This document shows positions 10,661 through 21,885 of a DNA stretch of 40,482 nucleotides, piece after piece. Made by a program: the position numbers and the translations under genes. Origin of the DNA: Escherichia phage vB_EcoP-22664UKE3-2. The notes under the pieces were generated by a model. The model was not told the origin of the DNA. It made no database searches and was given only the letters and a program-made list of their open reading frames with translations. The DNA is taken from sequence record MZ234011.1; one strand, given 5' to 3'. Position 1 is the stretch's first letter; each line of letters begins with the position of its first letter.

Positions 10661-10723
10661 GACAGTGATTAACTACAGGGTCTTTGAGTCTACATCTGAA
10701 GGCCCTGACTGATAGTCACTAAC
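10661..10723 (+). promoter_or_regulatory. Repeated hairpin element, family 1 copy A (putative RNase III site before first early gene)
   Basis: AGTGATTAACTACAGG...CCTGACTGATAGTCACTAAC; imperfect inverted repeat; nearly identical to copy D at 12156. Confidence 0.5.
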
Positions 10724-13303: not shown

Positions 13304-15985
13304 ATGAGCGTCATCTCTATTGACAAACACGACTTCTCTGATGTGTCGAACGCCATTGAGCCGTTTAACCTGCTGGCTGACCACTACGGGCAAGACCTTG
13401 CAGTCAAACAGCTTCAGCTTGAGCATGAGGCCTACACTGAAGGTGAGCGACGTTTCATCAAGAACCTTGAGCGTCAGACCGAGCGAGGGGAACTGGCAGA
13501 CAATCAGGTCGCCAAGCCTTTGATGCAGACTCTGGTTCCTAAGATTGCGCAAGCCGTCAAGGAGTGGCACGAAGGTCCAGACGGGAAGCTGTCAACCTCA
13601 CGTCCGAGCGTAGCGTTCACCATGTTAAGCACTGAAGAGAAGGCCGTCAAGGACCGCTCTCTTCGCATCTCCTGCGAGTCTGCTGCGGTTATCATACTGA
13701 AGGTCATCCTCTCCAAGCTGGTCAAGCCTGAAGGTATACCGATTACACCGATGGCCTCCGCGATAGGTCGCACACTTGAGGATGAAATCCGATTCGGTCG
13801 CATTCGTGACAAGGAGAAGGAGCACTTCAAGAAGGCGATAGCTGATAACCTGAACAAGAGAGCCGGGGCATCATACAAGAAAGCCTACATGCAAGCGGTC
13901 GAGACATCCATGCTGGAGCAAGGCCAACTAGAAGATGCGTGGGGAACTTGGAGTCCGACCGAGGCTGTCCACGTTGGAATCAAGATGCTGGAGATTGTCA
14001 TACAGTCAACACAACTGGTCGAGCTTAAGCGTTACGGTGCTGGCAATGCAGCGGCTGACGTTGAGATGGTCCACCTGTCAGACTTCTGGGTCAAGAAGAT
14101 GGCACAACGAGGATTCAGCCTTGCGGGTATCGCCCCAGTCTACCAGCCTTGCGTCGTTCCGCCTAAGCCGTGGACTGGTGTCGTAGGCGGTGGGTATTGG
14201 GCCAAAGGTCGAAGACCATTGCCACTGATTCGCTTAGGGTCTAAGTCTGCGGTAGCACGTTATGAAGACGTATACATGCCTGAAGTCTATGAAGCTGTGA
14301 ATATCATCCAGAATACACCTTGGAAAGTGAACAAGAAGGTATTGGACGTGGTGAACAGGGTCGAGAAGCTGAACAACACGCCTATTAATGACATCCCTCA
14401 GATGGAACCGCTGAAGCCTGAGGACTATGCTGGTGAAACCGAGGAGGAACTCAAGGCATGGAAGAAGGCTGCTGCTGGTATCTATCGCCGCGAGAAGGCC
14501 AGACAGTCACGCAGATTATCACTGAGCTTTATCGTTAACCAAGCAAACAAGTTCTCTCAGTTCAAGGCCATCTGGTTCCCGTACAACATGGATTGGCGAG
14601 GTCGTGTCTACGCTGTCCCGATGTTCAACCCTCAGGGTAACGACATGCAGAAGGGGCTCCTGACTCTGGCAGTCGGCAAGCCTATTGGTGCTGACGGTTT
14701 CAAATGGCTGAAGGTCCACGGTGCAAACTGTGCGGGTGTCGATAAAGTCACCTTCGATGAGCGCATCAAGTGGGTGGAAGACAACCACGAAAACATCATG
14801 GCTGCTGCTAAGGCACCGATGGATAGCATTGAGTGGTGGGGCAAGTTAGACTCTCCGTTCTGCTTCCTAGCGTTCTGCTTCGAGTATGCTGGCGTAATGC
14901 ACCACGGCTTGTCTTACTCCTGCTCGCTGCCGATAGCGTTCGATGGGTCCTGCTCTGGGATTCAGCACTTCAGCGCTATGCTTCGCGACCACATCGGTGG
15001 ACATGCAGTAAACCTGACGCCATCCGGTAAGGTCCAAGACATCTACCGCATCGTGTCTGACCGCATTGAGGAGGAGCTTAAAGTCCTACTGGTTAACGGT
15101 ACGGACAACGAGATGGTAACTCACGAGGACAAGAAAACTGGTGAGATTACCGAGCGTCTCAAGCTGGGGACACGAGAGCTTGCCCGTCAGTGGCTGACCT
15201 ACGGTATGTCACGAAAGGTCACTAAGCGTTCGGTCATGACTCTGGCCTACGGGTCGAAAGAGTACGGCTTCGCAGGCCAAGTTTACGAGGACATCGTGAT
15301 GCCAGCGATTGACTCAGGGTCTGGCGCTATGTTCACTGAACCAAGCCAAGCATCTCGCTTCATGGCTAAGATGATTTGGGAAGCTGTGAGTGTGACCGTA
15401 GTTGCTGCGGTTGACGCGATGAAATGGCTTCAGGGTGCTGCCAAGCTGCTTGCTGCTGAAGTGAAGGACAAGAAGACTGGAGAAATCCTGAAGCCTTGTC
15501 TTCCGGTACACTGGGTCACACCTGATGGTTTCCCTGTCTGGCAGGAATACCGAAAGAAGGACACCACTCGTCTGAACCTGATGTTCTTAGGGTCATTCAA
15601 CCTTCAGCCTACCGTCAACAAAGGCACGAAGAAAGAGCTGGACAAGCACAAGCAGGAGTCAGGCATTAGCCCGAACTTCGTCCACTCACAAGATGGTAGC
15701 CACCTCCGCAAGACTGTAGTCCACACGCACCGCAAATATGGCGTGATGTCATTCGCAGTGATTCACGATAGCTTCGGGACCATCCCGGCTGACGCTGAGT
15801 ATCTGTTCCGTGGAGTCCGTGAGACGATGGTCGAGACCTACCGCGACAACGATGTGCTGCTTGACTTCTACGAGCAGTTTGAATACCAGCTTCACGAGAG
15901 CCAGAGAGACAAGTTGCCTGAGCTTCCTAAGAAAGGTAAACTGAATATCGAAGACATCTTGTCTTCAGACTTTGCATTCGCTTAA
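13304..15985 (+). CDS. 1: DNA-directed RNA polymerase, single-subunit (T7 gp1-like)
   Basis: 893 aa; N-terminus DKHDFSDVSNAIEPFNLLADHYG...LEHEAYTEGERRF...ADNQVAKPL parallels T7 RNAP; C-terminal FAFA like T7. Confidence 0.97.
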   Translation: MSVISIDKHDFSDVSNAIEPFNLLADHYGQDLAVKQLQLEHEAYTEGERRFIKNLERQTERGELADNQVAKPLMQTLVPKIAQAVKEWHEGPDGKLSTSRPSVAFTMLSTEEKAVKDRSLRISCESAAVIILKVILSKLVKPEGIPITPMASAIGRTLEDEIRFGRIRDKEKEHFKKAIADNLNKRAGASYKKAYMQAVETSMLEQGQLEDAWGTWSPTEAVHVGIKMLEIVIQSTQLVELKRYGAGNAAADVEMVHLSDFWVKKMAQRGFSLAGIAPVYQPCVVPPKPWTGVVGGGYWAKGRRPLPLIRLGSKSAVARYEDVYMPEVYEAVNIIQNTPWKVNKKVLDVVNRVEKLNNTPINDIPQMEPLKPEDYAGETEEELKAWKKAAAGIYRREKARQSRRLSLSFIVNQANKFSQFKAIWFPYNMDWRGRVYAVPMFNPQGNDMQKGLLTLAVGKPIGADGFKWLKVHGANCAGVDKVTFDERIKWVEDNHENIMAAAKAPMDSIEWWGKLDSPFCFLAFCFEYAGVMHHGLSYSCSLPIAFDGSCSGIQHFSAMLRDHIGGHAVNLTPSGKVQDIYRIVSDRIEEELKVLLVNGTDNEMVTHEDKKTGEITERLKLGTRELARQWLTYGMSRKVTKRSVMTLAYGSKEYGFAGQVYEDIVMPAIDSGSGAMFTEPSQASRFMAKMIWEAVSVTVVAAVDAMKWLQGAAKLLAAEVKDKKTGEILKPCLPVHWVTPDGFPVWQEYRKKDTTRLNLMFLGSFNLQPTVNKGTKKELDKHKQESGISPNFVHSQDGSHLRKTVVHTHRKYGVMSFAVIHDSFGTIPADAEYLFRGVRETMVETYRDNDVLLDFYEQFEYQLHESQRDKLPELPKKGKLNIEDILSSDFAFA

Positions 15986-19214: not shown

Positions 19215-19369
19215 CTGACGTAGAGAAGAAGTACATCGTGGAGCTTGAGGGTCGCATTCAGTCCTTCGAGGTTCCGGTGTACGCAAAGTCTCTTGAAGAG
19301 GCTACCCTGAAGTCCCAAGAGTATGAGGACGCTGGGTTTGTGGTCGGACGGATTCGCCCTGAGACCTAA
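19211..19369 (+). CDS. gp2-like inhibitor of host RNA polymerase (52 aa)
   Basis: Manual translation ...[35 protein letters not shown] matches T7 gp2 ([34 protein letters not shown]). Confidence 0.7.
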
Positions 19370-19387
19370 ACTATCACTGTAGGACAG
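19365..19387 (+). promoter_or_regulatory. Variant phage promoter (CTAAACTATCACTGTAGGACAG) upstream of gene 2.5
   Basis: Promoter core with A to G at -3; may be weaker. Confidence 0.4.
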
Positions 19388-19426: not shown

Positions 19427-20125
19427 ATGGCTAAAGAGCAACTGAAGACTTTCACCACTCCGGTAGCTGGTATCGTTGAGCCTTACGCATGGCTGAACAA
19501 AGCAGACACCAAGTTTAATGAACGTGGTGAGCATAAGGTTAACCTGACATTCGACCTGAGCAACCCGAAGGTCCGTAAGATGATTGATGTCTTACAGAAG
19601 ATTCACGACGATGCGTATGCGAAAGCACTCGCAGACCACGAGAAGAACCCACCTCAGGTTCAGCGTGGCAAGAAGCCTATTGAACCACGAGAGGGCGACA
19701 TGCCGTGGATTGAGAATGGTGACGGTACTGTTACCCTGAAGTTTAAATGCTTCGCGTCTTACCTGAAGGATGGTAAGTCAGAGCCTATCGTATTACGGTT
19801 CTACGACACCGATGCTAAGTTAATCCGTGACGTCCCGAATATTGGCGCTGGCTCCAAACTGAAGGTCAAGTTCAAAGTCCTGCCGTTCAAGTGGAACGCT
19901 GCGACTGGTGCAAGCGTTAAGCTCCAGCTTGAGTCCTGCCTTCTGGTAGAACTGAAGGAGTGGAAAGGTGATGGTACTGGTGGCGATGGCGGCTGGGGTG
20001 ATGATGAAGACCTCGGTACTGGCTACAAAGCATCAACCGATGGTGACTTCGGGTCTGATGACTTCGGTGACGATGGTTACGAAGGTGGTGACGACTCCAA
20101 CTCTGGTGGCGATTACGACTTCTAA
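19427..20125 (+). CDS. Single-stranded DNA-binding protein (T7 gp2.5-like)
   Basis: EPYAWLNKAD...RGKKPIEPREGDMPWIENGDGTVTLKFKCFASY...GAGSKLKVKFKVLPFKWNAATGASVKLQLES plus acidic C-terminus ending DYDF, as in T7 gp2.5. Confidence 0.95.
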   Translation: MAKEQLKTFTTPVAGIVEPYAWLNKADTKFNERGEHKVNLTFDLSNPKVRKMIDVLQKIHDDAYAKALADHEKNPPQVQRGKKPIEPREGDMPWIENGDGTVTLKFKCFASYLKDGKSEPIVLRFYDTDAKLIRDVPNIGAGSKLKVKFKVLPFKWNAATGASVKLQLESCLLVELKEWKGDGTGGDGGWGDDEDLGTGYKASTDGDFGSDDFGDDGYEGGDDSNSGGDYDF

Positions 20126-20577
20126 TGGCCCAATGGTCTGCAAAACGGGGGCACTCTGTGGGTGCCTACCGCTCTGGACTTGAAGCCAAGAACCAGCAGT
20201 GGCTGGAACAGAACGGCGTCAAAGCGGAGTACGAAAGCCATTATATCAACTATGTGATTCCGGCTTCCGACCACAAGTACACACCAGATTTTATCCTTCC
20301 CAACGGTATCATCGTGGAGACCAAAGGTATCTTCGATAGTGATGACCGTAAGAAGCACCTTCTGGTACGAGAACAGCACCCAGAGTTAGACATCCGGTTC
20401 GTGTTCTCAAGTTCCCGCTCCAAGCTATACAAAGGGTCTCCGACCACGTATGGCGCATGGTGCGAAAAGAACGGCTATAAGTATGCCGATAAGTTCATCC
20501 CGGTTGAGTGGCTCCGAGAGGCGACTGTACGTCTGCCTTCAGGTATACTCATCCCCAAGAAGAAAGGAGTTAAGTGA
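20125..20577 (+). CDS. Endonuclease I, Holliday-junction resolvase (T7 gp3-like)
   Basis: GAYRSGLEAKN...YVIPASDHKYTPDFILPNGIIVETKGIFDSDDRKKHLLVREQHPELDIRFVFSSSRSKLYKGSPTTYG closely parallels T7 gp3. Confidence 0.95.
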   Translation: MAQWSAKRGHSVGAYRSGLEAKNQQWLEQNGVKAEYESHYINYVIPASDHKYTPDFILPNGIIVETKGIFDSDDRKKHLLVREQHPELDIRFVFSSSRSKLYKGSPTTYGAWCEKNGYKYADKFIPVEWLREATVRLPSGILIPKKKGVK

Positions 20578-21068
20578 TGAGCAAGAAGTTTAAACTGTTA
20601 GTAGATGCGCATGGCTGGCCTAGTGGGACTATAGTTACCAAGTGTGAGAATGACCCCGTACCAGATTCAAGAATGACCCTAGTTGAGTGCCAGACTCCAG
20701 GCGCATACAAACATGGGTCTAACGGCTGCAATACTCAGCCTGAGGGTATGTGGGGAGCATGGGTCCTTAATTGGAAACTTGAGGAAATCAAGCCGGAAGA
20801 GAAACTCACTGGTGTCCAAACCACTCAAGTCCTGCCAGCTTCGAGCGTACCGCCTGTGACTTTGAAGCGTGAAATCCTGACCATCGACAAGATTGGTGTA
20901 GGCCAGACGTTCATCGTCCATGGAAAGCCTGAAGAAGTTTACGTGAAGATTAGCAACTCACACGTCTTCAACCATAAGCATCTCCAGATGCACACCACGG
21001 ACGCACAACGCTTCATCCAGCACCTGAATCTGGTTGTCGTAAAATTGGTGGTGTACAATGGTAAGTAA
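20574..21068 (+). CDS. Hypothetical protein (164 aa) between endonuclease I and lysozyme
   Basis: Start overlaps the gp3 stop; four Cys; T7 has no gene here. Confidence 0.55.
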   Translation: MMSKKFKLLVDAHGWPSGTIVTKCENDPVPDSRMTLVECQTPGAYKHGSNGCNTQPEGMWGAWVLNWKLEEIKPEEKLTGVQTTQVLPASSVPPVTLKREILTIDKIGVGQTFIVHGKPEEVYVKISNSHVFNHKHLQMHTTDAQRFIQHLNLVVVKLVVYNGK

Positions 21069-21516
21069 GGTACAGTTCAATCCACGGTCCCGGACCGACG
21101 CTATCTTCATTCACTGTTCGGCTACCAAGCCAGAGATGGACATCGGGGTAGAGACCATCCGTATGTGGCACAAGCAGCAAGGCTGGCTGGACGTAGGCTA
21201 CCACTTTATCATCAAGCGCGATGGTACTGTGGAAGAGGGACGCCCTGTCAATGTCGTAGGGTCACACGTTAAGGACTGGAACTCACGGTCTGTAGGCGTC
21301 TGCCTTGTAGGTGGAATTGACGCTAAGGGCAAGTTTGAAGCTAACTTCACTCCAGCCCAGATGAACTCCCTGCGCAACAAGCTGGCTGACCTGAAGGACT
21401 TGTATCCTCAGGCAGAAATCAAGGCTCACCACGATGTAGCACCAAAGGCTTGCCCAAGTTTCGACTTGCAGCGCTGGCTTAACACTAACGAACTGGTCAC
21501 TTCCGACCGAGGCTAA
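21058..21516 (+). CDS. Lysozyme / N-acetylmuramoyl-L-alanine amidase (T7 gp3.5-like)
   Basis: DAIFIHCSATKPEMDIGVETIRMWHKQQGWLDVGYHFIIKRDGTVEEGR...HHDVAPKACPSFDLQRWLNTNELVTSDRG is near-identical in motif structure to T7 lysozyme. Confidence 0.95.
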   Translation: MVSKVQFNPRSRTDAIFIHCSATKPEMDIGVETIRMWHKQQGWLDVGYHFIIKRDGTVEEGRPVNVVGSHVKDWNSRSVGVCLVGGIDAKGKFEANFTPAQMNSLRNKLADLKDLYPQAEIKAHHDVAPKACPSFDLQRWLNTNELVTSDRG

Positions 21517-21530
21517 TAAGGAGAATTAAC

Positions 21531-21743
21531 ATGATTAAACTTATTGAATTTCTGGGTCGTCTGGTTGTGCGTGGCTATTCTCGTGCTGCGAGTGTGGAAC
21601 GAAAAGTCGCATCTGCTGCGGCTAAAGGTGCGGAAGCGGCTGCTGCGGAAGCGGATAGTCTGCGCATCAAGTCTCTGGACGCTGGCCTACGTGCCAAAGG
21701 TCTTGACAAGAAAGCCGAGCAACTGAAAGGCTTCTTCAGCTAA
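21531..21743 (+). CDS. Hypothetical protein (70 aa), Ala/Lys-rich
   Basis: ORF with RBS AAGGAGA upstream. Confidence 0.5.
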   Translation: MIKLIEFLGRLVVRGYSRAASVERKVASAAAKGAEAAAAEADSLRIKSLDAGLRAKGLDKKAEQLKGFFS

Positions 21744-21761
21744 ACTATCACCTTAGGGATG
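21739..21761 (+). promoter_or_regulatory. Degenerate promoter-like sequence (CTAAACTATCACCTTAGGGATG)
   Basis: Upstream half matches the promoter core but -4/-3 are changed (CACCTTAGGG vs CACTATAGGG); activity doubtful. Confidence 0.3.
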
Positions 21762-21806: not shown

Positions 21807-21885
21807 GTCTCCATAGCTCAAACGGTAGAGCGGCGGGTCGTGATGGCCTATTGCGATTAGGGTTCGAATCCCCGTGGAGACGCCA
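21807..21885 (+). tRNA. tRNA-like element (degenerate; possible pseudo-tRNA or tRNA-like structure)
   Basis: Perfect 7-bp acceptor stem GTCTCCA/TGGAGAC, D-arm GCTC-AAACGGTA-GAGC, canonical T-loop TTCGAAT in GGTTCGAATCC, discriminator G then CCA; I could not fold a clean anticodon stem and the middle is about 3 nt long. Confidence 0.35.

Follow-up and report, generated by a model that had tools for sequence, protein, structure and literature searches.

The 40,482-nucleotide (nt) sequence record of Escherichia phage vB_EcoP-22664UKE3-2 (MZ234011.1; this whole stretch is called the window below) raises the question of which protein is encoded between endonuclease I (gene 3) and the amidase/lysozyme (gene 3.5). 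A sequence-only reading of this locus had pointed out that gene 3 of T7 runs directly into gene 3.5, which the T7 coordinates bear out (gene 3 ends at 10706 and gene 3.5 starts at 10706), and that a reading frame of 164 amino acids (aa) occupies the junction in the window, where it is indeed present (GTG 20574 to 21068, + strand); as no gene separates 3 from 3.5 in T7, the gene is accessory relative to T7. Our alignments identify it as gene 3.2 of Kayfunavirus (K1F/LM33_P1-like, T7 group). The product, gp3.2, is predicted to comprise a pair of small SH3-like beta-barrels with a flexible Pro/Ser linker between them; the C-terminal one is the constant part throughout the genus, and the N-terminal one is exchangeable. 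The protein may serve as a binder or adaptor directed at the host.

20577 to 21068, + strand: coding sequence of gene 3.2, 163 aa plus TAA when read from ATG (164 aa for the mechanical open reading frame, ORF, that opens at GTG 20574)

Identity of the gene and evidence for selection

At the DNA level gene 3.2 is 99.2-99.4% identical to its counterparts in Escherichia phages vB_EcoP-22664BS1, 6925, LM33_P1 and HC12, and 85-88% identical to those of EcoDS1 and K1F, both of which are annotated '3.2: gp3.2'. Copies with at least 99% identity occur in at least eight GenBank phages, and those matching records that give a taxonomy list Autographiviridae, Studiervirinae and Kayfunavirus. The gene order 3 / 3.2 / 3.5 is the same in K1F, EcoDS1, SP7, Bas105, 101120B1-2, EPr2, SH5, Vec13 and ST11. 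Two PHROG families, both of unknown function, match the protein: PHROG 16385 along its entire length (E 7.8e-94; residues 1-163 aligned to profile positions 1-157) and PHROG 15211 over residues 94-163 (E 8.6e-38). Gene 3.2 as such is ordinary, already known and ubiquitous in its genus, and its earlier description as an unknown accessory gene at the gene 3/3.5 junction, with a possible nucleic-acid or host-interaction function, holds only in part: it is catalogued as gene 3.2 of K1F and EcoDS1 and is a conserved gene of related phages, but it is annotated as hypothetical everywhere and carries no assigned function. The searchable literature gives gp3.2 no function and holds it only as a hypothetical protein in annotation tables. 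Neither the whole of gp3.2 nor its separate domains nor the profile had a match in Pfam, NCBIfam, PADLOC or PDB sequences, and the absence of a Pfam match extended to E up to 1 for the whole protein and to E up to 10 for either domain.

The length of the ORF is not decisive for its reality, since spurious antisense ORFs of 150-190 aa arise by chance elsewhere in the window. Conservation and substitution rates are decisive, and they go beyond chance: 255 homologues of gp3.2 were found, nearly all on phage contigs of 39-41 kb, and the ratio of nonsynonymous to synonymous substitution rates (dN/dS) is 0.20 over all of gene 3.2, with values across 12 phages of 0.36 for residues 1-73, 0.14 for the linker and 0.09 for residues 94-163 (dS 0.45-0.85). 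Gene 3.2 is a genuine protein-coding gene under purifying selection, as the sequence-only reading had supposed. The alternative, in which the frame is non-functional, having either arisen by chance or persisted in decay only to couple lysozyme translation, could call on the lack of any known domain, on the antisense chance ORFs of similar length and on the gp3.5 ribosome-binding site carried by its 3' end. Purifying selection acts over its whole length (dN/dS 0.09-0.36) with substantial dS, however, both halves give confident folded models, and 255 intact homologues are retained across the genus. The selection analysis and the confident folds effectively refute this alternative, whose probability we consider close to nil. 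An embedded regulatory element was also ruled out as the cause of the conservation: no sigma-70-like promoter, phage promoter or Rfam family was detected inside the ORF, and the one terminator-like match there, on the minus strand, is below chance expectation.

Predicted architecture of gp3.2

The product of gene 3.2 (18 kDa, without an enzyme signature) is predicted to fold into the following parts, the model of AlphaFold2 having a predicted local distance difference test score (pLDDT) of ~91 for residues 1-73, of 80 for the C-terminal domain (core ~91) and below 50 for the linker.

20577 to 20795, + strand: predicted N-terminal SH3-like small beta-barrel, module type A (residues 1-73)
20796 to 20870, + strand: Pro/Ser-rich linker PEEKLTGVQTTQVLPASSVPPVTLK (residues 74-98; delimited by alignment and pLDDT <50)
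20871 to 21065, + strand: predicted C-terminal SH3-like small beta-barrel, the constant core of the family (residues 99-163)
20940 to 21014, + strand: invariant motif Y122-x3-S126 N127 S128 H129-x-F131 N132-x4-Q137 M138 H139 T140 T141-x3-R145 F146 (residues 122-146; from alignments)
20581 to 20823, + strand: exchangeable cassette (blastn homology to phages with other modules ends at 20580 and resumes at 20824-20827)

The predicted structure is that of a five-stranded small barrel that matches solved SH3-type domains, a likeness that denotes a structural class and not a homologous family. Barrels of unrelated function are evenly represented among these structural matches, which therefore carry no functional information. 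The N-barrel is near neutral (isoelectric point, pI, 6.7) and the C-barrel is basic (pI 9.2) with six histidines; no hydrophobic segment or signal peptide was found in the gp3.2 sequence. Internal duplication, with the barrels as copies of each other, finds no support (hhalign probability <13%). The four cysteines previously attributed to the protein are a miscount, as it has three, of which Cys23 alone is conserved among type-A homologues, and its C-terminal domain has none; a cysteine or metal site was ruled out on these grounds.

The constant C-terminal barrel

The C-barrel holds 14 invariant and mostly polar residues within 25 positions, which the model places in the loop before strand 3, in strands 3 and 4 and in a short helix, and the motif holds even in the deepest branch, the Providencia PSTCR2-like proteins, at 28-36% identity. 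The barrel was detected in 219 phage records by tblastn, and among 1,263 T7-like records 221-222 have a Kayfunavirus-type gp2.5-gp3 block; by these counts the C-barrel is essentially universal in Kayfunavirus-type genomes (~99%). No other group yielded it in the tblastn search, in which the unclassified Studiervirinae phage PSTCR2 gave the weakest of the 219 matches. An exhaustive hidden Markov model (HMM) search of 1.84 billion representative proteins recovered 17 clusters, all of them the gp3.2 family or its fragments, and two more profile searches gave no outgroup or new relative of the family. The C-barrel is often encoded alone as a protein of 74 aa, a form confirmed in SH5 and ST11 and, through the literature, also in Dev2. 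The identity class with the most members, 106 records at 60-80%, corresponds to this standalone form. Its substitution rate is on a par with that of its essential neighbours (dN 0.04 and dS 0.45, compared to dN 0.045 and dS 0.33 for gp3 and dN 0.026 and dS 0.27 for gp3.5), the rates of the N-barrel being dN 0.28 and dS 0.78.

The motif is denser than a typical protein-protein interface, with its 14 invariant residues per 25 positions, and the domain is often a free-standing protein, both of which would suit a small-molecule binder (a Tad2-type sponge for a host signalling or defence nucleotide) or a minimal enzyme working through the invariant Ser/His/Asn/Gln/Thr/Arg cluster. We regard either as a long shot, given that the Tad2 match is weak and one among hundreds of generic barrel matches, that the domain has only ~65 aa and lacks acidic or Cys catalytic residues, that PADLOC and Pfam give no signal, and that the interchangeable N-barrels would be left unexplained. 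When a known defence-system component (PADLOC-DB) or a Tad2-type sponge was tried as a candidate identity for gp3.2, there was no profile or clear structural match.

Exchangeable N-terminal modules

The C-barrel occurs either alone or fused to at least eight unrelated N-terminal modules. Type A, the one present in the window, was found in 55 phage records, type B in 27, type E in 21 and type D in four; singleton types were seen in metagenomes, and four proteins have a three-domain A+B+C form. No homology was detectable among types A, B, D, E and G, or between them and the C-domain (hhalign probability <13%). In blastn comparisons with the window, Vec13 (type B) is 96.8% identical up to 20580, shows no identity thereafter and is again 87% identical from 20824/20827 in the linker, and STP-SP3 (type E) follows the same course with 96.4% up to 20580 and 81% from 20824/20827; homology to SH5, which has the standalone form, returns at 20877. 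From these alignments the type-A N-barrel is an optional cassette-like add-on, which elsewhere is replaced by at least seven unrelated modules or is missing. In the linker (...TQVLPASSVPPVTLKR...) the 3' part VLPASSVPPVT.KR is kept among phages with differing N-modules.

Within type A a conserved scaffold (GWP.GT.VTKC..DP...LVE...G..HG..G..QP.GMWGAW) supports hypervariable loops, the positions with more than 2 bits of entropy (9-12, 16, 28-33, 39, 43, 49, 51, 64-67 and 72) lying nearly all in predicted loops. That the N-module might track the capsule or O-antigen receptor was ruled out for K1 phages, because K1F carries type A and PhiNW-B1 type B, both on K1 hosts; vB_EcoP_F (K1 host) falls into the identity class of the standalone form, an assignment made by class only with the gene itself uninspected. 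Metagenome proteins P0123, P0131, P0132, P0122 and P0144 are frameshifted or truncated type-A versions of gp3.2, in which the N-domain is scrambled or cut and the C-domain intact, and probably reflect errors of assembly or sequencing, or else recent damage confined to the N-module.

Gene boundaries, neighbours and transcription unit

The position of gene 3.2 relative to its neighbours is defined by the following features.

20125 to 20577, + strand: gene 3, endonuclease I, the upstream neighbour (Pfam Phage_endo_I, E 2.8e-81)
20564 to 20569, + strand: Shine-Dalgarno sequence AAGGAG, 7 nt before ATG 20577 and within the final codons of gene 3 (read from the sequence)
21058 to 21516, + strand: gene 3.5, amidase/lysozyme, the downstream neighbour (Pfam Amidase_2, E 4.5e-17)
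19366 to 19383, + strand: phage RNA-polymerase promoter CTAAACTATCACTGTAGG, heading the gp2.5-gp3-gp3.2-gp3.5-gp3.7 unit

The true start of gene 3.2 is likely ATG 20577 and not GTG 20574, since AAGGAG stands 7 nt upstream of it and the homologues all begin M-S/T-K/Q-K-F/Y. The stop codon of gene 3 (TGA 20575-20577) shares one base with this ATG, and at the other end gene 3.2 overlaps gene 3.5 by 11 nt, its last codons holding the ribosome-binding region of gene 3.5. Judging from these junctions, gene 3.2 is translationally coupled to both the endonuclease I gene upstream and the amidase gene downstream. The coupled start that had been proposed on the basis of an ATGA overlap is upheld as to the coupling, but not as to the ATGA, the junction in the window being TGATG (1 nt, with the ATG start) or GTGA (4 nt, with the GTG start); an ATGA-type overlap of 4 nt with gene 3 is present in K1F itself.

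The promoter consensus CTAAACTATCACTATAGG has 11 copies in the window compared to 0.09 expected. The nearest promoter after that at 19366 is 21740-21757, with zero copies inside gene 3.2, and because these promoters flank the region with none internal, gene 3.2 is assigned to one transcription unit, gp2.5-gp3-gp3.2-gp3.5-gp3.7, across which stops and starts overlap or abut. From its position, we infer that gene 3.2 is transcribed from the promoter at 19366 together with the DNA-metabolism (class II) genes, and is therefore probably of the middle class.

This setting bears on two further explanations of gp3.2. In one of them it is a DNA- or RNA-binding accessory of DNA metabolism, whose basic C-barrel would bind nucleic acid or endonuclease I and modulate junction resolution, host-DNA breakdown or recombination, with the N-barrel as a secondary contact. 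In every genome examined gene 3.2 lies directly after, and coupled to, the endonuclease I gene, including Providencia PSTCR2, where two other ORFs part it from the endolysin and the adjacency to gene 3 is nevertheless kept. The pI of 9.2 of the C-domain and its invariant exposed polar/His/Arg motif would also suit this explanation, as would its near universality in the genus, and among the structural neighbours are barrels that bind nucleic acid or the ribosome, namely EF-P domain I, the L2 C-domain, RimP, KOW, Tudor and the N-terminal barrel of Hpy99I. We nevertheless think such a role possible but rather unlikely: T7, T3 and ~1,040 other T7-like records among those searched are without the Kayfunavirus-type gene block, which would make the role genus-specific, gene order in T7-like phages is conserved whatever the function, and frequent wholesale exchange of the N-module would be unusual in a core DNA-metabolism factor.

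In the other, gp3.2 is a partner of the gp3.5 amidase/lysozyme, either as a separate SH3b-like cell-wall-binding subunit that aids lysis or as a modulator of the complex between lysozyme and phage RNA polymerase. The overlap of 11 nt with the amidase gene and its ribosome-binding region is found in most genomes, SH3b-containing hydrolases (LytB and the NlpC/P60 proteins 3h41, 3m1u and 4xcm) are structurally near both barrels, and an invariant C-domain would suit an invariant target such as enterobacterial peptidoglycan or gp3.5/RNA polymerase. We consider this partnership unlikely, as no SH3b or peptidoglycan-binding Pfam model was matched even at E up to 10, signal peptide and hydrophobic segment are absent from the sequence, an HNH gene (in STP-SP3) or two ORFs (in PSTCR2) can part gene 3.2 from the endolysin, and T7 lysozyme is established to function without such a partner.

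Possible role of gp3.2

We favour the explanation that gp3.2 works in the middle phase as a binder or adaptor without enzymatic activity, in the service of host takeover or counter-defence, and put its probability at roughly 0.4. Its action would then be stoichiometric. With its invariant face the C-barrel would dock on a target shared by the whole genus, which could be a conserved host machine or a conserved component of phage replication, recombination or transcription, and this target would have to be constant over Escherichia, Salmonella, Enterobacter, Citrobacter, Cronobacter and Klebsiella hosts. The N-barrel would add, or tune, the recognition of a partner that varies between strains. 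Among the small class II proteins of T7 that are non-essential, those with a known function (gp2, gp1.2, gp4.5, gp5.5, gp5.7 and gp5.9) are mostly inhibitors of host proteins, and it is by analogy with these that host takeover or counter-defence is favoured, as well as because module swapping together with hypervariable loops is the signature of an arms-race interface.

Several points weigh against this explanation. The fold of gp3.2 cannot choose between roles, since the ligands of SH3-like barrels range over proteins, peptides, nucleic acids, glycans and small molecules. The near-universal C-domain with its very low dN looks more like a genus-core function than a dispensable anti-defence gene, and the invariant Ser/Asn/His/Gln/Thr/Arg cluster could instead serve to bind a ligand or for catalysis. 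In addition, the overlap with gene 3.5 and the ribosome-binding site of the latter explain part of the extreme C-terminal conservation, and the expression of gene 3.2 and its timing are deduced from its position.

The binder/adaptor explanation can be taken further, to a 'constant-variable' adaptor in which an invariant docking barrel is tethered to interchangeable recognition barrels with hypervariable loops. In this specific form the proposal is speculative, and the odds are heavily against it. If it were true, a cassette swap of 240 bp would re-target one conserved effector route (e.g. a host protease, a polymerase or a phage nuclease) onto strain-specific host factors such as defence proteins, which would amount to modular, recombination-driven counter-defence of a kind undescribed so far for T7-like phages.

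No prior description of the constant/variable two-barrel architecture, the sharp cassette boundaries or the genus-wide motif was found in the searchable literature. What is noteworthy is a domain of 65 aa that is unique to one genus, is conserved like its essential neighbours, bears a dense invariant polar motif and has modules exchanged next to it at precise boundaries. The Kayfunaviruses K1F, LM33_P1 and CLB_P1 are under development as therapy against capsulated and ST131 E. coli, and it is plausible that a protein of the genus core whose module differs between strains helps to determine intracellular host range. Engineering tools exist for K1F (e.g. PMC6277420), which makes gp3.2 easy to test.

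Surroundings of the gene and other features of the window

In relatives, further sequences are found on either side of the gene 3 / gene 3.2 pair. Salmonella phage STP-SP3 has an HNH_3 homing-endonuclease gene (E 9.8e-15; locus L019, 1916-2365) between gene 3.2 and the amidase gene, Providencia phage PSTCR2 has two ORFs of 117 and 79 aa, both unknown, between gene 3.2 and the endolysin gene (locus L016, 2705-3278), and in IMG/VR UViG 2706795479 (locus L002, about 2118-2597) ~480 bp are inserted between gp2.5 and gp3, corresponding to 20125-20173 of the window. The HNH gene 2.8 of T7 occupies a place equivalent to this last insertion. The gp3/gp3.5 (gp3.2/gp3.5) and gp2.5/gp3 junctions are thus hot spots of insertion among relatives. 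Extra ORFs at the gene junctions of T7 are usually HNH homing endonucleases, e.g. T7 genes 2.8 and 3.8; such an identity was ruled out for gp3.2, which has no HNH match.

Downstream of the amidase gene, an Ala/Lys-rich ORF of 70 aa (21531-21743, + strand) corresponds to gp3.7 in the K1F annotation and has no significant Pfam match. Just after the promoter at 21740-21757, in the leader of gene 4 (primase/helicase), lies a tRNA-like element (21807-21885, + strand), which scores 36.7 bits with the Rfam tRNA model (gathering score 29) and is called tRNA-Thr(CGT) of 79 nt by ARAGORN. Its acceptor, D and T arms are canonical; the anticodon-arm region aligns poorly and is 21 nt long where 17 would be regular. 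In 33 Kayfunavirus-type records the element is conserved at 90% identity or more, and in a few of these its annotation reads tRNA-Pseudo or tRNA-OTHER. Such an element is unusual for T7-like phages and might represent a pseudo-tRNA or a signal for processing by RNase P/Z.

The window (1-40482) seems to comprise an entire Kayfunavirus genome in circularly permuted form. Ahead of the RNA polymerase gene (13304-15985) it holds large late-gene ORFs, an ORF of 588 aa and the early region, the 588-aa ORF having the same length as the terminase large subunit of related phages. All 11 copies of the promoter consensus CTWAACTATCACTRTAGG lie on the + strand.

Comparison with known systems

By every defining feature tested (profile, position and motif), gp3.2 is placed in the PHROG 16385/15211 family. 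K1F/EcoDS1 gp3.2 (PHROG 16385) and the 'hypothetical protein' of LM33_P1, vB_EcoP-22664BS1, 6925 and HC12, among others, represent the same gene, with the same position, the same two-domain layout and a similar length; K1F gp3.2 differs in its shorter linker, its length of 157 aa and its true ATGA overlap with gene 3. The 74-aa gp3.2 of Cronobacter phage Dev2 and of Citrobacter phages SH3/SH5 (PHROG 15211) is homologous to residues ~94-163 of the window protein, has the same motif and is found in the same place, after endonuclease I and overlapping the amidase gene, but is without the N-terminal barrel and the Pro/Ser linker, a difference that shows the C-domain to be the autonomous core.

The likeness to other small barrel proteins is looser. 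By its predicted fold gp3.2 falls within the class of the SH3-like superfold (eukaryotic SH3, SH3b, KOW, Tudor, FeoA and the DtxR C-domain), with no membership at the sequence level. SH3b and peptidoglycan-binding families (Pfam SH3_3, SH3_5 and similar) were ruled out, there being no profile match, and so was NlpC/P60, since the C-domain is without cysteine in any member and no Pfam NLPC_P60 match was obtained. Modular endolysins of the PlyC type resemble the present arrangement in that a small barrel protein is encoded just upstream of, and coupled to, a peptidoglycan amidase, but gp3.2 differs from them in having no SH3b HMM match and no export signal, in its Gram-negative host and in an adjacency that is broken in some relatives.

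With T7 gp2, gp1.2, gp4.5, gp5.5, gp5.7 and gp5.9, gp3.2 shares, by analogy, its size class, its class II position, the lack of an enzyme signature and a patchy occurrence among T7 relatives. It has no sequence or fold relation to these small inhibitors, and gp3.2 alone would join a genus-invariant domain to interchangeable N-terminal modules.

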